NCBI GenBank assembly: GCA_048941265.1
Contig: JBHLNT010000066.1
Span: forward strand, 1-21,822
Direction: 5' to 3'
DNA length: 21,822 bases
From: Promethearchaeota archaeon
Lineage (GTDB): Archaea > Asgardarchaeota > Lokiarchaeia > Sigyniarchaeales > SOKP01
A program made the position numbers and the translations under genes. The notes under the pieces were generated by a model. The model did not search any database, had not been told where the DNA came from, and saw only the letters and a program-made list of their open reading frames with translations. Shown here in pieces: positions 6,585-21,639 of the stretch. The stretch's first letter is position 1, and every line of letters starts with the position of its first letter.

Positions 6585-7529
6585 ATGACCGTAAAACAAT
6601 TACAAAACGAAATTCTTAATTTAAAAAGAAAAGCCGATGTAACAATTTTAGCTCATTATTATCAACCAATTGAAATTCAAGAAATCGCAGACTTTTTAGG
6701 GGATTCGCTCGGTTTATCCCATAATGCTAGGGACAAAGCAAATACAGAATATATAATATTTGCAGGGGTTGATTTTATGGCTGAAACAGCCTCAATCATA
6801 AACCAAGATAAACATGTACTACTTCCTAGTTATGAATCATGCTGTCCTATGGCCGCATTTTTAACTCCCCAACAAGTGAGAGAATTTAAAAAAAAATATC
6901 CTTACCTACCTGCTGTTGTTTATGTTAATTCTACTGCTACCGTTAAAGCAGAATGTGATATTTGCTGCACCTCATCAAATGCAGTCAAAATTGTTAAAGC
7001 AATGAAAGAAGCGTATGATGTGGATGCTGTGTTATTTGGACCTGATGCTAATTTGGGAGACTACGCCGAGCAAATGTCTAATATAAAAACAATTAAAATG
7101 CCTGAAAATGGTCATTGTTATGTCCATTCCCAAATAACTGTGGAAGATATAAAAATTGTGAAAAAAGCGCATCCAAAGGCTAAACTCCTTGTTCATCCGG
7201 AATGTATCAGAAATGTTAGAGAATTAGCAGATTTTGTAGGTTCCACAGCTCAAATGTATAAAAATGTCAAAGAAAGCCCTCCAGAGATTCAGAATTTTAT
7301 TATAGGAACTGAACAGGGGCTTGTAGAAAGGATGGTCCAAGATTTTCCTAATAAGAAGTTTTATTTGGCAAAGGAAAAACTGATTTGTTATAATATGAAA
7401 AAGCACAATCTAGAGTTAATTAAATATTTATTAGAAAATCTAGATGATAAAAAGCATGAAGTTAAAGTACCTCCTGATATTGCCAAAAAAGCCCTTAAAC
7501 CTATTGAAAAGATGTTAAATTATTCCTAA
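6585..7529 (+). CDS. nadA: Quinolinate synthase
   Basis: ILAHYYQ, GDSLGL, FMAETA, CPMA, YVNS, TSSNA, CYVH, HPEC, GST, GTE and CYNMK motifs, including the three Fe-S Cys. Confidence 0.97.
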   Translation: MTVKQLQNEILNLKRKADVTILAHYYQPIEIQEIADFLGDSLGLSHNARDKANTEYIIFAGVDFMAETASIINQDKHVLLPSYESCCPMAAFLTPQQVREFKKKYPYLPAVVYVNSTATVKAECDICCTSSNAVKIVKAMKEAYDVDAVLFGPDANLGDYAEQMSNIKTIKMPENGHCYVHSQITVEDIKIVKKAHPKAKLLVHPECIRNVRELADFVGSTAQMYKNVKESPPEIQNFIIGTEQGLVERMVQDFPNKKFYLAKEKLICYNMKKHNLELIKYLLENLDDKKHEVKVPPDIAKKALKPIEKMLNYS

Positions 7530-10924: not shown

Positions 10925-12316
10925 ATGAAAATTGCCATATTAAATGGAAGTCCGAAGGGAGATCAAAGCGTTACCATGCAATATATATTATATATAAAGA
11001 AGAAAATTCCCAAACATGAGTATAAAATATTAAATGTGGCTCAACAAATAAAAAGACTTGAAAAAAACGATGAAGCATTTCAAGATATTTTAAATGAAAT
11101 CCAAAATGCAGATGCTATAATTTGGGGTTTTCCATTATATGTAATGGCTATAGCTTCCCAATTCAAACGGTTCATTGAACTTATTTTTGAGAAAAACGTT
11201 ATGAGCTATTTTAAAGATAAGTATACTATGTTATTGTTAACTTCGATTCACTTTTTTGATCACACTGCTAAAAACTATATGCATGGAATTTGCGACGATT
11301 TGGGAATGAAAGTTGTGGATTATTATTCAGCAGACAGTTGGGATTTATTATATCCTAAAAGAAGAGCAATGTGGCTAAAAATAGCTGAAAACTTTTTCGA
11401 AGCAATCGAAAACAAGATTCCAACTTCAAGACAATATCCCAGTATTAATCCTAGAGAATTTGAATATCATCCAGAAGGATTTAAAAATGGAGAAAAAAAA
11501 GTAAATCCAGGTCATAAAAAAGTTCTAATCATCACCGATTCTCAAGATGAGAGTGAAAATTTAGGAAAAATGATTAAAATATTTCAAACATGTTTTTCCC
11601 AAGAAATTGAAGTAATTAACATTTATGATATTGATATTTTGGGGGGATGTATAGGTTGTGGTAAGTGTGGATATAATCATGAATGCTCATATACCGGAAA
11701 AGACGGTTATCAGGAGTTTTGGGAAGAACATGTAATGAAAGCAGATATTTTAGTTTTTGCAGGGTCAATCAAAGATAGATTTTTATCATCAAGATGGAAA
11801 ATGGTATATGATAGAGCCTTTTATCAAACACACACTCCTACATTAATCGGAAAACAATTAGGCTTTATAATCTCTGGCCCCTTAAGCCAAATCCCAAATC
11901 TAAAAGAAATGATGCAAGCCCATGTGGAAATCCAAATGTCGAATCTTGGTGGTATTGTAACGGATGAATATGGAGATTCTGCAGAAATAGATGCACTTTT
12001 ATATGATTTGGCTCGACGATTAATTAAATTCGCAGATATAAACATAATAAAGCCACAAACATTTCTTGGAGTAGGAGGTTTTAAAATATTCAGAGATGAT
12101 GTATACGGTCGAAATCGTTTCGTTTTCTTAGCAGACCATAAATGGTATGAAGAACATGGAGTTTATGATTCATTCCCTCAAAATGATCAAAGAGCGATAG
12201 AAATGAATAAGAAATTGATCCCCTTAATCCAGATTGATAAAATCAGAAATAAAATGGACTTTAGGGAAGAATTTTTAAAACCTTTTAAGAAAGTAATAAC
12301 AGATCCTAATAAATAA
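10925..12316 (+). CDS. Two-domain NAD(P)H-dependent FMN reductase / iron-sulfur flavoprotein
   Basis: N-terminal MKIAILNGSPKG and FPLY; the second flavodoxin-like domain carries CxxCxxCx5C (CIGCGKCGYNHEC). Confidence 0.88.
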   Translation: MKIAILNGSPKGDQSVTMQYILYIKKKIPKHEYKILNVAQQIKRLEKNDEAFQDILNEIQNADAIIWGFPLYVMAIASQFKRFIELIFEKNVMSYFKDKYTMLLLTSIHFFDHTAKNYMHGICDDLGMKVVDYYSADSWDLLYPKRRAMWLKIAENFFEAIENKIPTSRQYPSINPREFEYHPEGFKNGEKKVNPGHKKVLIITDSQDESENLGKMIKIFQTCFSQEIEVINIYDIDILGGCIGCGKCGYNHECSYTGKDGYQEFWEEHVMKADILVFAGSIKDRFLSSRWKMVYDRAFYQTHTPTLIGKQLGFIISGPLSQIPNLKEMMQAHVEIQMSNLGGIVTDEYGDSAEIDALLYDLARRLIKFADINIIKPQTFLGVGGFKIFRDDVYGRNRFVFLADHKWYEEHGVYDSFPQNDQRAIEMNKKLIPLIQIDKIRNKMDFREEFLKPFKKVITDPNK

Positions 12317-12341
12317 AAAAAAATCGAAAATGGTTAGAAAA

Positions 12342-13736
12342 ATGAAAATTGCGGTATTAAATGGAAGTCCTAAAGGCGAAAATAGTTGCACTATGCAATA
12401 TATTTTTTATATTCAAAAAAAATTCCCTCAGCATGAGCTCAAAATCTTAAATGTAGCTCAACAAATTAAGAGACTTGAAAAAAGTGAAGAAAAATTTCAA
12501 TCGATTATTGAAGAAATTAAAGCTTCGGAGGGTGTTATATGGGCCTTTCCTTTATATGTAATGCTTGTTTCATACCAATATAAACGCTTTATTGAACTTA
12601 TTAATGAAAGAGAGGTTGGAGATGCCTTTAAGAATAAACATGCTGCATTACTATGCACATCAATTCATTTCTACGATCATACTGCAATCAATTACATAAA
12701 TGCTAATTGTAATGATTTAAAAATGAGATTTGTTGGATATCATTCAGCAAACATGTATGATTTGATGGAAGAAAAGCAAAGAAACAATTTAATTTCGTTT
12801 GCAGAAGATTTCTTTTCTTCAATTGAAGCCAACTCTCTTACTACAATAAGATTTCCTCCTCTCAAATTTCGAGAGTTCGAATACATCCCAAGTGAAGTTA
12901 ATAAAGATAAAGAAAAAATCGATGTTAATGGGAAGAAAATTCTTGTTTTAACTGATTCTACAGATGAGAATACAAATTTAGGCAAAATGATTCAATCATT
13001 TCGGAATTATTTTTCTAGTGATATTGAGACGATAAATATTTATGATATTGATATTAAAGGGGGATGCTTAGGATGTTGTCAGTGCGCGTATGATAATCAA
13101 TGTGTGTACAGGGATAAAGATGGATTTACAGAGTTTTTTAATACAAAATTAAGGACTCCCGATATTCTGATCTACGCTGGAACAATAAAAGATAGATATT
13201 TATCATCAAGATGGAAATTAATCCTTGATAGAAGCTTTTTTAATGGTCATACTCCAACAGCTGTAGGTAGACAAGTTGGGTATATTATCTCTGGTCCAGT
13301 AGGACAATTACCTAATATTCAACAAATATTCATGGCAATGGCTGAGATTTCAGATTCCAATCTGGTTGATATAATTACAGATGAGGATGGAGATTCTAAA
13401 CAAATCAATTCAAGGCTATATAATTTTGCTAAACGACTAGTAAAATTTTCAAATGCTAATTATATTAGACCTGGCACATTTCTGGCTGAAGGTGGTCGTA
13501 AATTATTCCGAGATGCAATTTATAAAATGCGCTTTCTTTTCCAAGCAGATCATAAGTATTATGAAGAACATGGATGGTATGACTTTCCACAAGAAGACAA
13601 GCAAGCTAAACAGATGAATGATATGCTTATTCCCCTGATAACTAAGAATGAAAAATTCAGAAAAAATTTCTATGCAAGAGCAACAACCGAAATGATTAAA
13701 CCATTACAAGCTATTGTAAAAAATCCTAAAAAATAA
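12342..13736 (+). CDS. Two-domain NAD(P)H-dependent FMN reductase / iron-sulfur flavoprotein (tandem paralogue)
   Basis: MKIAVLNGSPKG and CLGCCQCAYDNQC. ATG 12342 chosen by alignment with the paralogue; alternative start at 12330. Confidence 0.88.
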   Translation: MKIAVLNGSPKGENSCTMQYIFYIQKKFPQHELKILNVAQQIKRLEKSEEKFQSIIEEIKASEGVIWAFPLYVMLVSYQYKRFIELINEREVGDAFKNKHAALLCTSIHFYDHTAINYINANCNDLKMRFVGYHSANMYDLMEEKQRNNLISFAEDFFSSIEANSLTTIRFPPLKFREFEYIPSEVNKDKEKIDVNGKKILVLTDSTDENTNLGKMIQSFRNYFSSDIETINIYDIDIKGGCLGCCQCAYDNQCVYRDKDGFTEFFNTKLRTPDILIYAGTIKDRYLSSRWKLILDRSFFNGHTPTAVGRQVGYIISGPVGQLPNIQQIFMAMAEISDSNLVDIITDEDGDSKQINSRLYNFAKRLVKFSNANYIRPGTFLAEGGRKLFRDAIYKMRFLFQADHKYYEEHGWYDFPQEDKQAKQMNDMLIPLITKNEKFRKNFYARATTEMIKPLQAIVKNPKK

Positions 13737-14631: not shown

Positions 14632-15228
14632 ATGACGGAAAAACCGATTGAAAAGAGTCAAATAGAAGGAATTATAGAAAACGATAAAGTTATTATTTCC
14701 GATAAAGAAGGAATAGAAGATTTCTATCTCACTTCATATATTGGAACACTAGAACAAAATTCTAATGGTCAAGATTTATTAATCTTAGAGCCAATGGAAG
14801 TACTTCTTTTATGCGAAAGGAGGAGAATACTTATATGGGAAGACAATGATAAAAATAAAAAACAATACGATTTCGAGAAACTATTAGAGTATTTTACACG
14901 TTATGATGAGAAATTGTGGCATAAATATATTATCTATATGGACTTAAGAAAAAGGGGCTACATTGTTCGAACGGGTTATGGCGACGGTATCGAATTTCGG
15001 GTGTTTAAAAGAGGAGCGAATTTTGAAGAAGATTCGGCGAAATATCTTATATATCCCGTATATGAAGGAAGCCCTATAGAACTAAAAGACTTAGATAGAA
15101 TATCGCGTGTTGCCATGAGTTCTAGAAAGGATCTTATTGTTGCTACGGTAGATAGATTAAGTAAACCTATTTATTATAGCGTTAAGAAATTTCAAATTTT
15201 AAACATAGAGGGTAGTGAAAGAAAATAA
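14632..15228 (+). CDS. endA: tRNA-intron endonuclease subunit (probably the non-catalytic, structural subunit)
   Basis: LEPMEVLLL, YMDLRKRGYIVRTG and RVAMSSRKDLIVATVD motifs. The catalytic Tyr and His positions appear substituted. Confidence 0.85.
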   Translation: MTEKPIEKSQIEGIIENDKVIISDKEGIEDFYLTSYIGTLEQNSNGQDLLILEPMEVLLLCERRRILIWEDNDKNKKQYDFEKLLEYFTRYDEKLWHKYIIYMDLRKRGYIVRTGYGDGIEFRVFKRGANFEEDSAKYLIYPVYEGSPIELKDLDRISRVAMSSRKDLIVATVDRLSKPIYYSVKKFQILNIEGSERK

Positions 15229-15229
15229 A

Positions 15230-16897
15230 ATGCCTGATAAATTTGCTTGTGATACTTCAGTTATCTTCAACGGTCAAATAATCAACCTAATTGAAGAAGG
15301 TGAATTAGGTGAAAAACCTGAAATTTGCATTTCAAATATAGTTCTAGCGGAAGTAGAATATAGGACAAATATTCAGAAAGAAATCGGATTTTTCGGATTA
15401 AATGTGTTAAAACACTTAAGGGAATTACATGATAAAGGAGAGATTATACTTCATATTGTAGGAAAACGCCCCACTAGGCAAGAAATCAAGATGGCTCCAG
15501 GGGGTGAGCTTGATGCTTTAATTCGGGAATCTGCGCGTGAAAATGAAGCAGTATTAATCACAGCAGACAGAATTCAAGGAGATGTAGGAAAATTTGAAGG
15601 TTTAGAAGTACTATTTGTATGGGAAAAAAAACCTAAAACAGAAATTTTGCCGCATTCTCTTAAATTGATCTCATACTTTGATGATGAGACGATGAGCGTT
15701 CATCTTAAACGAAATTTGCCTCCTTATGCTAAAAAAGGAAGGCCTGGAGATTGGCATCTGCAAAAAATTTCTGAAGATCCAATATCGACCCAATTAATTG
15801 AAGATATAGCGCTTGAAATTATTGAAAACGTCAGGGAAGATGAACATTCGTTTATAGAGATAGAAAAGGAAGGAGCTGTTGTAGCCCAACTTCGTGAATT
15901 TAGAATTGTTATTACGAGACCTCCTTTTTCTACAGATGTTGAAATCACCGCTGTGCGCCCTCTTGTAAATTTAACACTAAAGGATTATTCCATGGATAAA
16001 AGACTTAATAAAAGGCTCAATAAAGCAGAGGGAATACTCGTTGCAGGTTCTCCTGGAGCAGGTAAATCTACATTTTCCGCAGCTTTAGCAAACTATTATC
16101 TTGAACAAGATAAGGTGGTTAAAACACTAGAAAGCGTAAGAGATTTACAAGTAAGACCTGAAATTACACAATATACTAAATTAGAGGGAAATCTCGAAAA
16201 CTCAGCTGATGTTTTATTGCTTGTAAGACCAGACTTTACGATTTTCGATGAAGTTAGGACAACTAAAGACTTTGAGATATACTCAGATTTCCGTTTATCT
16301 GGCGTTGGGATGGTAGGGGTAGTTCATTCTTCTTCGGCAATTGACGCAATTCAAAGGTTTATCGGACGGATTGAGCTCGGAATGCTACCATCCATAATTG
16401 ACACCATAATTTTTATAGAAGGCGGCGATATTTCTTCAGTTTTAACATTAAAAATGACCGTAAAAGTCCCCCATGGATTTAGAGATAAAGATCTTGCAAG
16501 ACCGGTGGTAGAAGTTAGAAATTTTGATAATGGTCAACTTACCTTTGAAATTTATTCTTTTGGACAAGATGTCGTAATAAATCCAATCAATCCAATAAAA
16601 TCTAAGAGATTTGCGAAAGATTTTGATGTTTCCACGGATTTTATTCCACATAAACATGGTAAAACAAAAAAACAGAAAATTGAATTAAATGTTATTGTAA
16701 AAAAGGAAAAAGTTATTATACAAGCTGAAGCTGATTATGCGAGTCAAAATATAGAAGTATATGCAGATGAAAAACAGATATTTACAGGCTCATTGAGTAG
16801 AAAAAGCGAGATAAATCTTTCATTGTTAAATAAAGAGGGGAGAAGAATTCTTAAAGAATTAGATAGAAATAAACAAATTTATGGAAAAATTAAATAG
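15230..16897 (+). CDS. PINc/VapC-family ATPase (PINA, Holliday junction branch-migration ATPase family)
   Basis: PIN domain (DTSV...GELDALIR...TAD), ETMSVHLK, Walker A GSPGAGKST, Walker B TIFDEVR and GVVH...IDAIQRF. ATG 15230 lies 1 bp after the endA stop; alternative GTG at 15215. Confidence 0.92.
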   Translation: MPDKFACDTSVIFNGQIINLIEEGELGEKPEICISNIVLAEVEYRTNIQKEIGFFGLNVLKHLRELHDKGEIILHIVGKRPTRQEIKMAPGGELDALIRESARENEAVLITADRIQGDVGKFEGLEVLFVWEKKPKTEILPHSLKLISYFDDETMSVHLKRNLPPYAKKGRPGDWHLQKISEDPISTQLIEDIALEIIENVREDEHSFIEIEKEGAVVAQLREFRIVITRPPFSTDVEITAVRPLVNLTLKDYSMDKRLNKRLNKAEGILVAGSPGAGKSTFSAALANYYLEQDKVVKTLESVRDLQVRPEITQYTKLEGNLENSADVLLLVRPDFTIFDEVRTTKDFEIYSDFRLSGVGMVGVVHSSSAIDAIQRFIGRIELGMLPSIIDTIIFIEGGDISSVLTLKMTVKVPHGFRDKDLARPVVEVRNFDNGQLTFEIYSFGQDVVINPINPIKSKRFAKDFDVSTDFIPHKHGKTKKQKIELNVIVKKEKVIIQAEADYASQNIEVYADEKQIFTGSLSRKSEINLSLLNKEGRRILKELDRNKQIYGKIK

Positions 16898-17020: not shown

Positions 17021-18256
17021 TTATTTAATTGATCTTTCTTCTTGAACCATTTCTAAAATTTTACCTTTAGTTTCATAGGGCTTTATTAAGAGGGTAATCA
17101 GAGGGATAATCATAAAAATTCCACCCCATATGAAAAATCCACCCATGGTGGGATACGCTATCAATAAAACAAATGCAATTAAAGGACCAATAACATATGC
17201 TCCACGAACTGCAGTGTAAGAAACGCCTACGGCGGTAGACCTGATTTTAGTTGGAAAAATTTCTGCAAAATAGACCATAATCCAAGCTAAAATAATCGGC
17301 ATGAATAAGTAAATCATAAAGAAAAAGAATGTTACACCCCCGGTAATTCCAAGTCCTATAAATCCAATTACAGACCCTGTACATCCAATAATCATCGTAC
17401 CGTTCCTCCCCACCTTTTCCATCAAAACCCCGGATAAGATAGCACCGACCATTGTAAGTAATGCTGCAACTGTGAGAATGCTACGAAATTGGGGTTCTGT
17501 CCAACCTTTGATGTTCATGTAGTAATATCCGCCCCAGCTTCGAATTAGAATATATGAAATTGTCCACATACTATATACAATCGTGCACATTATAACATAA
17601 ATTAGATCCGTCCTTTTCATATCTTTAAGTGCTTCTTTTAATTTAAGAAATCTAGATTCTCTTTTTTTGTGTTCAATCTCCCATCTCTGTGGTTCTTTCA
17701 TGAAATACCACATGACACAAAGTCCTAACATGAAGAAGAACCATAATCCATATGCCCAGCGCCACCCTACACTTGTCGCAATAGGGCCTGCGATAAATGC
17801 CCATATAGGTATTACACCTATAAGAAATGCGATACTTCCATACAGACCTCTCTTCGCAGGGGGCGATTCCTCAGCTACAGGAATTTCCCAGATATTTGAA
17901 AGAGTTCCTAATATGATAATTGAGTATAATATCATGAACCAATGGAAATTACCCTCAGTAGTAAAAACAATTAAAAGAGCAGGAACCCCTAATACTAACA
18001 TTAGAATTAACATCCCTTTTCTCCTGCCATATGCATCCGCTGCCCATGCTATAAGAAAAACTGCAAAAGTAATTATACCGTAAATTCCTTGCCAAAAGGC
18101 AAATTCTACAGCAGTTATTCTATAATCTTCAAGAATAAATGGTATGAGAGGACCCTCAATTTGAGATAAACTTTGATCAAGAAGACCGATAAGTCCCATA
18201 AATATTACAAGGAAAGCAACATATTTTCCCGACCTTTGTTCAAATTCTTCTGACAT
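17021..18256 (-). CDS. MFS transporter
   Basis: About 12 hydrophobic segments; motif A (ADAYGRR, MEKVGR), EESPPAKRG, GWRWAY, EIFPTKIRS and PYETKG. Confidence 0.93.
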   Translation of the reverse strand: MSEEFEQRSGKYVAFLVIFMGLIGLLDQSLSQIEGPLIPFILEDYRITAVEFAFWQGIYGIITFAVFLIAWAADAYGRRKGMLILMLVLGVPALLIVFTTEGNFHWFMILYSIIILGTLSNIWEIPVAEESPPAKRGLYGSIAFLIGVIPIWAFIAGPIATSVGWRWAYGLWFFFMLGLCVMWYFMKEPQRWEIEHKKRESRFLKLKEALKDMKRTDLIYVIMCTIVYSMWTISYILIRSWGGYYYMNIKGWTEPQFRSILTVAALLTMVGAILSGVLMEKVGRNGTMIIGCTGSVIGFIGLGITGGVTFFFFMIYLFMPIILAWIMVYFAEIFPTKIRSTAVGVSYTAVRGAYVIGPLIAFVLLIAYPTMGGFFIWGGIFMIIPLITLLIKPYETKGKILEMVQEERSIK

Positions 18257-18465: not shown

Positions 18466-19224
18466 TTAGATACCTAATAATTCTTTTACTTTTTCAACGA
18501 TTGGGGGTAGCACATCTATAATATCATCAAAAAATCGTAAATCTGCCACTCTATCATATGGTGTTTCTCCTCTATTTAAAATAATGAGTTTCGATCCCGA
18601 TTGTTTCGCAATCCCCGGCATATTCGCTGCAGGAGTCACGACTAGGGAAGAACCAATTACAAAAAAAACATCAGAAGCTTCAGATCTTCTCATTGATTCA
18701 TATAACTCATCTTCTGGTAGAGGGTCTCCGAAATTTACAATACTATTAATTAATCTTCCGCTACAATTGGGACATTTTGGTTGCCCATCCTTAACTCTTT
18801 CTGTTCTATATCCTCTCCCCCATTTATTTTTATCCCATCCAGCCTCTTCGAAAAGCAATTTTTTGTTACAATCCAAACATTTCATATAATACATGTTACC
18901 ATGAAGTTCTGCCATTATTTCAAACGGAATACCTGATTTTGCATGTAAACCATCTATATTTTGAGAAATTAAATAGTCTAATTTTCCAATTTTTAAGAGA
19001 TCTACTATAGCATAATGAGCAATATTCGGTTTAACTTGATCCCACGGAGGAGATTCAGGGGGGGGTAATCCTGCATCTCTTCGAGTCCACATCCCATCTG
19101 GACCACGAAAGTCAGGTAATCCAGAGTGAGTCGATATACCAGCTCCAGTAAATACTACAAGCTTTTTTGATTCAGCTATCCATTCCGCTGCTAATTTTAT
19201 CTTGTTTTCCAAATCTTTTTCCAT
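18466..19224 (-). CDS. Sir2-family NAD-dependent protein deacylase (class IV-like)
   Basis: [21 protein letters not shown], ELHGN, two CxxC pairs, GSSLVV.PA and LN.GET motifs. Confidence 0.95.
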   Translation of the reverse strand: [252 protein letters not shown]

Positions 19225-19316
19225 ATTAGATACCTATTTAAGGTTTAAAATTATCCTAAAGATCATTAAAAATTTTCTAATTCACGATATATAAAAATTA
19301 TAATAATTAGCTCTTT

Positions 19317-20078
19317 TTAATCATTTTTCATTAGAATTTTTACTTTCTCAACAATAGAAGGCAAAACTTCAGCAATGGAATCAGAAAATCTTATATCAGC
19401 TATGTTATCATATGGAGTTTCTCCTTGGTTTAGAAGGATTAATTTAGAACCATTTTGTTGAGCAATTCCAGGCATATATGCTGCAGGATAGACCACTAAA
19501 GATGAACCTATAACGAAAAATACATCACTTCGTGCTGATCTCCTCATTGATTCCTCTAATTCATCTTGAGGAAGGGGATCTCCAAAATTAACAATGCTAC
19601 TAATTAGCCTTCCTTCACAATCCGGACATCTAGGATGCCTTTTTCGTGGTTTCGACATTCTAAATCCCATTCCGTGTATTCTTTTATTCCAACCTGCTTT
19701 TTCAAATGTTAACTTTTTTCCACAACTTAAACATTTCATAAAGTACAAATTTCCGTGTAATTCTGCTAATTTATCAAAAGGAATTCCAGATTTTGCGTGA
19801 AGTCCATCTATATTCTGTGAAATTAAATAATCTAACTTACCCATTTCCAATAATTCTTCTATTAAATAATGGCCTTGATTTGGTTGTACCTGATCCCATG
19901 GCGGTGATTTTGGGGGAGGTAAACCTTTATCCCTTCTCGTCCACATCCCATCTGGACCACGGAAATCAGGTAGCCCGCTATCAGTAGATATTCCTGCTCC
20001 TGTAAATACAACAAGTCTCTGAGATTCTACTATCCATTTTGCGGCCAACTCAATTTTTTCTTTAAGATCTATTTCCAT
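19317..20078 (-). CDS. Sir2-family NAD-dependent protein deacylase (class IV-like), tandem paralogue
   Basis: Same motifs as the neighbouring copy. ATG 20078 chosen by alignment; the ORF track gives TTG 20087. Confidence 0.95.
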   Translation of the reverse strand: [253 protein letters not shown]

Positions 20079-20223
20079 ATTACACAAATAAACTATTTGT
20101 TTATTAAAAGATATTGTAATTAGTCCATAACTAAAATAATAATAAAAAAAACTCTTATCAAATAAAAAAAGATTAATTAATAATTGGATAAATTATATAC
20201 TAAAATCACGGAATTAAATTAAG

Positions 20224-21639
20224 ATGGCAAAGAAAAAATCCAAAAAGGAAAGTTTAGATGGCAATAATTTCAAATTATTTTTAAAGTCAATGACAGTTGC
20301 TAAGATTAAAGAATTAATTGATTATTATAACGAAAAATTTGTCATCAATGGACCTAAAGATGAATTGATAAAAGGATTTTCTAATCTTAAAAAAGCAGAA
20401 TTAGTTGGTTTTGTCGATGCTTCGTTGAGTGAATCTGAGAAAAAAGAATTATATAATGAATTTGAATCGGAAATTGTACAGACTTTGATTACAGATGCTC
20501 TTTCTTTAGTGAGCGGGGAACATAAGGTTGAGCAAATTCAAAATGCTTCTATTATTTCAGGGGGGAAAGGTTATAGAGTGTGGTTTAAGGGTAAATATGG
20601 CTCAAATAAAGCTTCTTTACAAATCTTAGATAATATGATTAAAAAGAGCTGTACCTGCAAATTAGGGAGTATGGACGGAATTTGTATGCATCAAATGGCT
20701 ATTTATTTAATGCTTTTAAGCAAAAAATCTATAGATTTAGAAGATTTACCTTTCAATGTAGACAATACGTGGTTTAAATCAATTCAGAAAAGATTGGATC
20801 TCCTTGCTGCTCAAAGTTTATTTAAAGAAGAACCCGCCATCATGTTTTCGAATGGTTATTCCATCTATATTAGCGGAGATCTTATTACCTTGGAGTGGGG
20901 AGGAGATTATGCAGGTCGCATTACTAAGGATATATCCGAAGAAGGAAAAGAAGTTGATGCGTGGGTTGCCCAAAAAGTAGTCGATATATTGCTTAAACCT
21001 ATTAAGATAAAAACAAAAGAGGGAGCACCAAATAAATTAGTTATTGATTCCTATGGAGTTGTATCAAAAATAATGCAAGATTCCAAAATAGTAGATAAAA
21101 TATTAAAAAAATTTGCTAAACTTGAAGATCCAAGTTTACCTTCAGATGATAATTCTCTCGAAGTGTTTTTAAAAAGTGATTTAAAAGAACATACTGCAGA
21201 ATTAAAGATTGAGCCCCCCTTTGAAGCGTATATTGGAAATGAACCTTTTTTATTTGTGAGTTATACCCATAAGGATAAAATGGAAGTATATCCAATTCTA
21301 GAGAAATTATATAATAGCGGAATTAACATCTGGTATGATGAAGGAATCCCTCTAAGTACCGATTGGTGCAACACTCTTGCGGAAAAAATATTGGATTGTA
21401 ATGTCTTTTTATCATTTATTTCCCCCTATGTAAATGAATCGGATAATACCCAGGATGAAATACAATTTGCAATCAATGAAAAAAAAACCTTTCTTGCGGT
21501 TTATTTAAGCGAAGGGGATCTTTCTCCTGGTTTAAAAATGAGAATGAGAAGAATTCAAGGTATTGAGAAATTTAATATGGACCAGGAAAGATTTTTTGAT
21601 AAACTATTAAGCGAAATCAATAGATTGGTTACAATTTAA
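20224..21639 (+). CDS. SWIM zinc finger and C-terminal TIR domain protein
   Basis: CTC-x8-CMH SWIM motif; TIR features FVSYTHKD, IWYDEGI, W...LAEKI, FISPYVNES and DEIQFA. Confidence 0.85.
   Translation: MAKKKSKKESLDGNNFKLFLKSMTVAKIKELIDYYNEKFVINGPKDELIKGFSNLKKAELVGFVDASLSESEKKELYNEFESEIVQTLITDALSLVSGEHKVEQIQNASIISGGKGYRVWFKGKYGSNKASLQILDNMIKKSCTCKLGSMDGICMHQMAIYLMLLSKKSIDLEDLPFNVDNTWFKSIQKRLDLLAAQSLFKEEPAIMFSNGYSIYISGDLITLEWGGDYAGRITKDISEEGKEVDAWVAQKVVDILLKPIKIKTKEGAPNKLVIDSYGVVSKIMQDSKIVDKILKKFAKLEDPSLPSDDNSLEVFLKSDLKEHTAELKIEPPFEAYIGNEPFLFVSYTHKDKMEVYPILEKLYNSGINIWYDEGIPLSTDWCNTLAEKILDCNVFLSFISPYVNESDNTQDEIQFAINEKKTFLAVYLSEGDLSPGLKMRMRRIQGIEKFNMDQERFFDKLLSEINRLVTI

Follow-up and report, generated by a model that had tools for sequence, protein, structure and literature searches.

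Two adjacent genes on a contig of a Promethearchaeota archaeon encode sirtuins, A and B, and raise the question of how such archaeal proteins are related to SIRT6 and SIRT7, the class IV sirtuins of eukaryotes, and what they are likely to do. The window, by which we mean the whole stretch of 21,822 nucleotides that was analysed, is the entire 21.8-kb contig of a 5.0-Mb draft genome (361 contigs, 91% completeness, 4.8% estimated contamination). Sirtuin A is an open reading frame of 252 amino acids (aa) at 18466..19224 and sirtuin B, read from an ATG, one of 253 aa at 19317..20078, both on the minus strand; an alternative TTG start at 20087 would add three residues to B, although the ATG start agrees with homologues. 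The two proteins align over 250 residues without a gap and share 74% identity, and the genome carries five SIR2 genes in all, the tandem pair and three others (L001-L003). Class IV was reportedly defined by phylogeny, by Frye in 2000. The origin of SIRT6 and SIRT7 bears on the rise of eukaryotic chromatin regulation, and a compact, Asgard-wide, SIRT6-like sirtuin would be a natural candidate ancestor and one that lends itself to expression and assay, a point that is already in print and partly tested. Our answer is that A and B are very probably active NAD+-dependent lysine deacylases of a compact SIRT6-like branch that is found across Asgard archaea and several bacterial phyla and stands nearest among prokaryotes to eukaryotic class IV, and that they are old paralogues held under strong purifying selection.

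Catalytic residues and SIRT6-like architecture

Both proteins match the Pfam SIR2 family PF02146, with 111.7 bits for A (E 5e-32) and 121.7 bits for B (E 4e-35) against a cut-off of 24, well above what chance would give, and both retain all 22 columns that are invariant in a 60-sequence alignment. Each has the NAD loop G27-A-G-x-S31, R40, Q88-N89-x-D91, H108, and the cysteines C116, C119, C151 and C154. The codon for the catalytic His108, a column invariant in 60 of 60 aligned sirtuins, is at 18901..18903 in A and at 19755..19757 (cac) in B, on the minus strand in each case, and the B residue aligns with H133 of SIRT6. Judged by these residues, A and B are true sirtuins with a predicted intact catalytic apparatus. 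Following established sirtuin chemistry, the acyl-lysine oxygen would attack C1' of the NAD+ ribose with release of nicotinamide, His108 would activate the ribose hydroxyl, and a cyclic intermediate would give rise to free lysine and O-acyl-ADP-ribose; the four-cysteine (Cys4) zinc module would stabilise the small domain.

The initial annotation had pointed to a set of motifs reminiscent of SIRT6, and this observation is confirmed. In both copies a run of 17 residues (48-64) leads to KPNIAH in A or QPNQGH in B, followed later by AELHGN and SIVNFGD. The human SIRT6 text that it quoted is likewise borne out by a phmmer alignment, which shows dfrgphgvwt, 17 residues and rptqth, gapless against B in this part. 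The region between R40 and N89, comprising the helical module and the cofactor loop (residues 41-88), is shortened in both copies and lies on the minus strand at 18961..19104 in A, as seen from the spacing and an alignment gap, and at 19815..19958 in B, for which a structure model adds to the same evidence. It spans 48 residues in A, B and the eukaryotic sequences (median 48), against a median of 65 in long-module sirtuins, and is about 17 residues shorter in A and B than in enzymes of the Sir2Af2 or CobB type. Measured by pattern, the spacing is 50 in A and B versus 66-70 in long-module sirtuins. A gap of about 31 alignment columns is common to A, B and three eukaryotic class IV proteins, and the FYNARRR segment of Escherichia coli K-12 CobB, which holds its YxxR motif, falls inside that gap; the motif is absent from A and B, as had been stated at the outset.

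Comparison with solved structures gives the same picture. The best match of B among Protein Data Bank (PDB) sequences by phmmer is human SIRT6, with 160 bits and an E value of 4e-46 in one stretch covering residues 5-246. Sir2Af2 and Sir2Tm follow at 152-153 bits, each with a match broken into two stretches by the roughly 17 extra residues of their helical module, and then Sir2Af1 (132 bits), SIRT7 (105), SIRT5 and Xenopus SIRT4 (90 each), SIRT3 (87) and SIRT1 (73). Hits longer than 443 aa are, after a few others, eukaryotic, and those named as sirtuins are all SRT1 or SIRT6, at 34-40% identity. For comparison of folds we used an alignment-based AF2 model of B with a predicted local distance difference test score (pLDDT) of 95.3; a single-sequence model (pLDDT 36) was discarded. 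Query-normalised template-modelling (TM) scores from Foldseek were 0.82-0.85 for SIRT6 and 0.65-0.74 for Sir2Af2 and Sir2Tm. VIA-align, too, found SIRT6 to be the closest fold, with a Z score of 30.2 and a root-mean-square deviation (rmsd) of 2.2 A over 238 of 253 residues, ahead of Sir2Af2 (Z 28.6, 3.9 A, 225 residues), Sir2Tm and Sir2Af1 (Z about 27), SIRT4 (24.6), SIRT3 (23.7) and SIRT5 (23.6); this is the structural comparison with SIRT6 that the initial annotation had proposed. Three bacterial SIR2 clusters appeared as look-alikes in the ESM Atlas, which we take as a lead only. The preference for SIRT6 is not a bias of genome composition, since L002, a long-module sirtuin of the same genome, scores 201 bits with Sir2Af2 and 103 bits with SIRT6. 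We regard the SIRT6-like structural reading as well supported.

Distribution and relation to eukaryotic class IV

The 120 best database relatives of the pair are 71-90% identical, and named relatives among the homologues come from Promethearchaeota, Lokiarchaeota, Hodarchaeota, Hermodarchaeota, Heimdallarchaeota and Helarchaeota; some are labelled 'mono-ADP-ribosyltransferase sirtuin 6' by JGI. At a threshold of E <= 1e-40, matches are found in 64 of 151 sampled genomes of the Asgard phylum, a count that mixes two kinds of sirtuin. Matches at E <= 1e-55 are present in 47 of these genomes, and the 20 that were fetched all fall in the compact clade, while in 17 genomes the only matches lie between 1e-41 and 1e-45, and the seven fetched from these are all long-module sirtuins. 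The compact type is present in 22 of 25 genomes of the source's own family, and the three further sirtuins of the source genome (L001-L003) are all of the long-module kind.

The compact form is also common in bacteria. When one genome per prokaryotic species was scanned, using an alignment with a non-Asgard representative at its head, at least 588 stretches encoding relatives were recovered. Of the best 80 among them, 61 are titled bacterial and 19 archaeal, and compact spacing (49-51) is found by pattern in 79. The bacterial titles in this best 80 include Desulfobacteraceae and other Thermodesulfobacteriota, Dehalococcoidia, Anaerolineales, Spirochaetales, Archangium (an isolate among them) and 'Deltaproteobacteria'; the archaeal ones comprise 17 from Promethearchaeota, Helarchaeota or Hodarchaeota, one from Bathyarchaeia and one 'uncultured archaeon'. 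Some compact domains of the prokaryotic type (P0121-P0127 and P0241) lie at the C-terminus of proteins of 408-537 aa, whose N-terminal 160-290 residues are assigned to no precomputed Pfam family; one of these, P0121, groups with a Syntrophaceae sequence in the 80-row tree described below.

To place A and B we built two trees. Among the best 150 of 16,613 representatives (E <= 1e-3) the spacing splits cleanly into compact (about 50) and long (66-70), and a FastTree phylogeny of 198 rows recovers the compact clade with a support of 96. Inside it are a 110-row clade (support 99) that holds all 13 named eukaryotes and a prokaryotic group of 50 rows. Eighty rows, picked to span the clades of this tree, were then analysed with IQ-TREE under LG+C20+F+G4, approximated by posterior mean site frequencies (PMSF): 16 Asgard, one Bathyarchaeia, 16 bacterial, seven unlabelled compact, 28 eukaryote-clade and 12 long-module sequences, with E. 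coli CobB omitted for its long branch. Eight of the eukaryote-clade rows are named eukaryotes and the others are labelled mostly by tree position. A name look-up for 30 representatives gave names for ten clusters, one from Heimdallarchaeota, six from eukaryotes and three with generic JGI enzyme names only; the named eukaryote clusters are those of Pelomyxa, Euglena, Synchytrium, two Diversispora (one cluster) and Pyxidicula. All four of the eukaryote-clade representatives that were tested match SIRT6 best.

The 80-row tree separates compact from long-module sirtuins with support values of 100/99, and within the compact part there are three groups. The eukaryotic clade, of the SIRT6/SRT1 type, comprises 28 rows (100/100) on a stem of 0.69, with all 40 prokaryotic compact rows outside it. 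The Asgard-dominated clade (89/91) has 19 rows, including Archangium gephyra and two unlabelled rows, and the bacterial clade (88/79) also has 19, including the Bathyarchaeia row. The Asgard-dominated and bacterial clades are joined weakly (84/42), and constraining the Asgard-dominated clade to group with the eukaryotes costs only 0.80 log-likelihood units (lnL), with a p value of 0.486 in the approximately unbiased (AU) test. On this evidence the three groups form a three-way polytomy. On these trees A and B belong to the sister or stem group of class IV and not to its crown, and they appear to be part of a broad prokaryotic sister group rather than to have a private Asgard link to SIRT6 and SIRT7.

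In an alternative reading, eukaryotes inherited class IV vertically from their archaeal ancestor and have the compact Asgard sirtuins as its specific sister clade, the bacterial copies being a more distant branch or later transfers. This agrees with a published, well-supported clade of Asgard sirtuins from Heimdall- and Lokiarchaeota that is sister to eukaryotic SIRT7 (Grau-Bove et al., 2022; bioRxiv 10.1101/2021.11.30.470311), and the small cost of the constraint leaves room for it; however, an AU p value of 0.49 demonstrates no clade, and the best tree, in which no sequence is of the SIRT7 type, weakly unites the Asgard-dominated clade with the bacterial one. The zinc module could be read in its favour as well, because its median length from His108 to the Phe of the FGD motif is 56 in the Asgard group and 52 in eukaryotes, versus 36 in the bacterial group (46 in long-module sirtuins). 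These lengths are compatible with a link between Asgard archaea and eukaryotes but are not independent evidence, since the tree that defined the groups was itself computed from an alignment containing these columns. The presence of Archangium inside the Asgard-dominated clade and of a Bathyarchaeia sequence inside the bacterial clade further suggests transfer between domains. On balance we think direct Asgard ancestry possible, but the less probable course of events. The published Asgard clade and the compact Asgard clade described here both consist of Heimdall- and Loki-type sirtuins beside class IV, although the available text of that preprint does not confirm that the two are the same; our tree, in which no row is of the SIRT7 type, differs in having a eukaryotic SIRT6/SRT1-type clade beside a prokaryotic group with many bacteria.

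The two displaced sequences deserve a remark of their own. L081, from Archangium gephyra (Myxococcota), has a long zinc module of the Asgard type, and L073 is the Bathyarchaeia sequence; their placements may be signs that compact sirtuins have moved between domains.

Bacterial homologues are reportedly noted already in the NCBI conserved-domain entry for the SIRT7 group. The evolutionary reading made from the sequence at the outset, that A and B are prokaryotic relatives of SIRT6 and SIRT7, is partly supported: their nearest eukaryotic and solved relatives are indeed of class IV, but they lie outside the eukaryotic clade (100/100) and many bacteria share the same form. Our maximum-likelihood phylogeny, which covers eukaryotic SIRT6/SRT1-type, compact prokaryotic and long-module sequences, separates A and B from the long-module (Sir2Af2/Sir2Tm) sirtuins and does not settle the order of the Asgard, bacterial and eukaryotic clades, which is the caution that this locus adds to the idea of an Asgard ancestor. 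The description of class IV as restricted to eukaryotes has been overtaken, because both the Asgard clade sister to SIRT7 (bioRxiv 10.1101/2021.11.30.470311) and bacterial, mainly Streptomyces, sirtuins in class IV (a 2021 review; PMC8603916) are already published; in the sections available of two other papers, class IV is treated as animal or eukaryotic, or archaeal sirtuins are put in class III (PMC9486876, PMC10652111). The novelty of SIRT6-like Asgard sirtuins therefore does not hold. What this locus adds is modest, namely an old and selectively maintained pair of paralogues, one of which has a remodelled basic zinc loop.

The tandem pair, its likely function and its neighbours

A and B are separated by a spacer of 92 bases (19225..19316, minus strand), with a T-rich stretch after the B stop and a TATA-like box, ttttaaa, at 19244-19250, some 20-26 bases before the ATG of A. 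On its other side B is separated from a divergent gene for a protein with a TIR domain by a second spacer (20079..20223, without strand), in which ttttaataa at 20101-20109 lies about 23-31 bases before the ATG of B. Both boxes were found by eye and are weak evidence because the DNA is only about 30% G+C. A draft genome in 361 contigs with 4.8% estimated contamination could in principle contain two strains wrongly assembled into a tandem, or a eukaryotic or bacterial contaminant of the metagenome bin. The spacer is, however, bridged by a contig of 2132 bases from a run of another study (X3), which covers 18740-20871 with six differences and extends from the 5' part of A through the spacer and the whole of B into the TIR gene, and also by contigs from a second sample of the source's own study (X2; 18733-19803). 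The congener G162 has an identical gene order on a contig of 793 kb, the flanking genes are 67-93% identical to those of Loki-family genomes, and 26% of residues differ between A and B, whose synonymous sites are saturated. We conclude that assembly did not create the tandem, and consider mis-assembly or contamination extremely improbable.

Neither copy has the other as its closest relative. In a FastTree phylogeny of 151 family members, B belongs to a nine-row clade (support 100) made up of B, the B copy of G162 and seven metagenome proteins, and A pairs with the A copy of G162, to which it is 87% identical, inside an eight-row clade (support 95). Between A and B the proportion of synonymous differences (pS) is 0.746, which is saturated, and the ratio of nonsynonymous to synonymous change (dN/dS) is 0.05; against orthologues dN/dS is 0.09-0.11, with 0.11 for B and its G162 counterpart. 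Saturated synonymous sites together with low dN/dS indicate that both copies are old and under selection. The tandem order is found in one of the three congeners in which the locus was read, G162, where two FMN-reductase-like genes, a HycI-like gene, the tRNA endonuclease, PIN-ATPase and major facilitator superfamily (MFS) transporter genes, A, B and the TIR gene follow one another as they do here. The other two, G138 and G144, have the same upstream genes and a single A-like copy, 77-79% identical to A and 71-73% to B, and in them we found no B and no TIR homologue at E <= 1e-10. Besides the source genome, no other genome among the 25 sampled from the family has two compact copies. A is the syntenic copy, adjoining the MFS transporter gene just as the single copy of G138 does; A would accordingly represent the ancestral syntenic copy and B a distinct lineage with a basic zinc loop, and a division of labour between them, over substrates or docking surfaces, seems the most likely reading. 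A literature search for prokaryotic class IV sirtuins turned up no paper that deals with the tandem pair or with the B lineage.

The A orthologue of G162 (L041, 13862-13885 region) is interrupted. Directly after the catalytic His-Gly codons it has a 30-base insert with in-frame stops and an 8-bp hairpin, CATATGAT / ATCATATG, with a 7-base loop and AAACAT on both flanks. This insert splits the reading frame into pieces of 111 and 143 aa, and the corresponding part of A in the window (18901-18930) is without it.

The residues that mark the B clade cluster in the zinc module (CxxC-31-CxxC, residues 116-154), which by its cysteine positions lies at 18763..18879 in A and at 19617..19733 in B, both on the minus strand. 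In A it carries a family-typical insert that includes QPK. In B the insert is remodelled: N131, R133, H135, M137, F139, S142, K143, R147, H148 and R150 are each present in eight or nine of the nine B rows, whereas among the other 124 family members D131 is found in 118, W135 in 88, Y139 in 123 and Q148 in 124, and A has all four of these. The net charge of the loop is +6 to +10 in the B clade and has a median of +4 elsewhere (range 0-8), with +4 in A. By this count the zinc-module loop of B is remodelled and strongly basic. In SIRT6 an arginine anchor, R175, is located in a loop insertion of the catalytic domain, according to the portion available of one study (PMC11790868), and the phmmer alignment sets R145, R147 and R150 of B opposite K170, R172 and R175 of SIRT6, although the third cysteines are unaligned and the equivalence is uncertain. 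With the same reservation about the alignment, basic residues stand at the SIRT6 R175 loop in copy B only. It is conceivable that the pair reflects an old sub-functionalisation in Asgard archaea in which B became a deacylase docking on DNA or chromatin, with an Arg/Lys-rich loop at the SIRT6 anchor position that arose independently of SIRT6 or foreshadowed it; we consider this unlikely, but if true B would be a prokaryotic example of a sirtuin zinc module turned into a chromatin-targeting device. In any case two long-kept paralogues that differ mainly in the zinc-module loop constitute a natural experiment, and since this loop is the element that SIRT6 uses for nucleosome docking the pair could be used to probe what it does.

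What A and B act on is a matter of weighing. They could be housekeeping deacylases in the manner of CobB, acting mainly on metabolic enzymes (e.g. acyl-CoA synthetases) and cytosolic proteins and having no special role in chromatin. This would fit with proteins of 252-253 aa that consist of the catalytic core alone and keep a canonical FGD loop, with a neighbourhood of a transporter and unrelated functions that holds no chromatin genes, and with close compact relatives in Desulfobacteria, Dehalococcoidia, Spirochaetota, Myxococcota and Anaerolineae, which are without histone chromatin. It fits less well with a 2026 preprint (bioRxiv 10.64898/2026.07.02.735847), whose available text reports that Lokiarchaeum SIR2 paralogues, LoSIR2b among them, deacetylate Loki histone-tail peptides in vitro in an NAD-dependent manner, that the catalytic domains of Loki and Hod SIR2 proteins restore silencing in yeast when fused to a yeast targeting domain, and that SIR2 proteins from a methanogen and from Bacillus gave no such rescue; the predicted binding of peptide by LoSIR2b is compared there with the SIRT6-nucleosome structure. 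The basic zinc loop of B also hints at docking to a surface that is acidic or made of nucleic acid. A purely housekeeping role is a serious contender, to which we give somewhat less than an even chance, and by analogy histone tails would be the best-supported candidate substrate for Asgard sirtuins.

Several points weigh against our preferred interpretation of A and B as compact SIRT6-like deacylases close to class IV. No curated NCBIfam subfamily claims either protein: all seven sirtuin models, which are CobB-type equivalogs such as NF040867, NF010736 and NF001752, score below their cut-offs for A and B (best 215.7 bits versus 320). The substrate loop is of the canonical xFGD form (NFGD) where SIRT6 has DWED, and the N- and C-terminal extensions which SIRT6 and SIRT7 use on nucleosomes are absent. 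The same compact form is present in bacteria that have no histones, so that the fold does not imply chromatin. The trees are drawn without class I, class II, eukaryotic class III and SIRT7-type sequences, the text available of the 2026 preprint does not establish the equivalence of A or B to LoSIR2a, b or c, and the runs listed as matching this stretch are DNA contigs, with no RNA run among them.

The TIR gene beside B (20224-21639, plus strand) starts 145 bases from it and encodes a protein of 471 aa with a C-terminal TIR_2 domain (residues 344-462, E 7e-16). Near residue 142 a C-x-C-x8-C-x-H motif, SWIM-like, is visible by eye, and the first 340 residues have no Pfam match. Full-length homologues, 52-83% identical, are present in 10 of 41 family genomes. 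The proximity of SIR2 genes and a divergent TIR gene, an arrangement that G162 shares, would be expected of a Thoeris-like antiviral system that depletes NAD. Yet A and B match none of 5027 PADLOC defence models at E <= 0.01, and the TIR protein has a single weak match (E 2e-4); A and B themselves have the zinc module and catalytic histidine of true sirtuins (PF02146), and the family is single-copy and TIR-free in most genomes. When five further TIR-bearing genomes were checked, the TIR gene adjoined a sirtuin only in G162: in G169 and G158 no sirtuin is near it, in G030 the two are on separate contigs, and G019 lacks a compact sirtuin match. A defence module is thus very improbable and was rejected, given the lack of PADLOC matches for A and B and an adjacency seen, of these five genomes, only in G162, and the TIR neighbour is probably not part of the sirtuin system.

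On the other side of the pair, an MFS transporter gene (17021-18256, minus strand) adjoins A. Its product is 93% identical to the MFS protein of G162 (L041, 10619-13256 region), where a second MFS-like gene, only 25% identical, adjoins it; G138 (L039, 5623-6909) has only this second kind, and the transporter complement of the locus therefore varies within the genus. Further upstream are a tRNA-intron endonuclease gene (14632-15228, plus strand), with both Pfam domains matched, and a gene for a 560-aa protein combining a PIN domain with a secretion-type ATPase (15215-16897, plus strand), which overlaps it by 14 bases. These two genes are kept together in G138, G144 and G162, and they lie three genes from the sirtuin whose G162 orthologue bears the hairpin insert. 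A second tandem pair of paralogues, also present in G162, is found at 10925-12316 and 12330-13736 (plus strand); the proteins are of about 465 aa with an N-terminal domain like FMN reductase or flavodoxin, and are 53% identical to each other's G162 orthologues. The gene for quinolinate synthase, NadA (6585-7529, plus strand; E 3e-106), an enzyme of NAD synthesis, is found some 11 kb away from the two genes for NAD-consuming sirtuins and the TIR gene.

Comparison with known sirtuins

With E. coli CobB and human SIRT5, of class III, A and B have fold and chemistry in common; the YxxR motif by which those enzymes handle acidic acyl groups sits in the segment missing from A and B. Sir2Af2 and Sir2Tm, which are usually filed as class U, resemble A and B in size, in their canonical zinc site and in their FGE/FGD loop, and their scores with B come close to those of SIRT6 (152-153 bits, fold Z 27-28.6). 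They differ in their longer helical module, in an rmsd to the B model of 3.8-4.6 A versus 2.2 A for SIRT6, and in forming a separate clade (100/99). Compact bacterial sirtuins share with A and B the short helical module and the compact clade, and their representatives are 46-57% identical to the pair. In most of them the zinc module is about 20 residues shorter (median 36 versus 56); Archangium, which groups with the Asgard clade, is the exception.

The nearest archaeal system with biochemical data is that of Candidatus Lokiarchaeum ossiferum B35, which has three paralogues, LoSIR2a-c, with no tandem pair described in the available text (bioRxiv 10.64898/2026.07.02.735847). A possible counterpart of A and B is LoSIR2b, which would be in keeping with the occurrence of both in Loki and Hod lineages. 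Like that organism, the source genome has several SIR2 paralogues, and Asn106 and His123 of its long-module sirtuin L002 have the same numbering as the residues changed in the LoSIR2a N106A/H123A mutant of the same preprint.

Human SIRT6 (PDB 3K35, 3PKI, 6XV6, 8G57) is about 35% identical to B. It differs in length, having 355 aa where the core fills the whole of A and B without terminal extensions, and in its second cysteine pair, which is C-x10-C and not the canonical CxxC of A and B. The likenesses lie in the core itself, in the short helical module, the 17 residues between the ...WT and PxxxH motifs, the catalytic Q-N-x-D ... H-G-N and the first CxxC.

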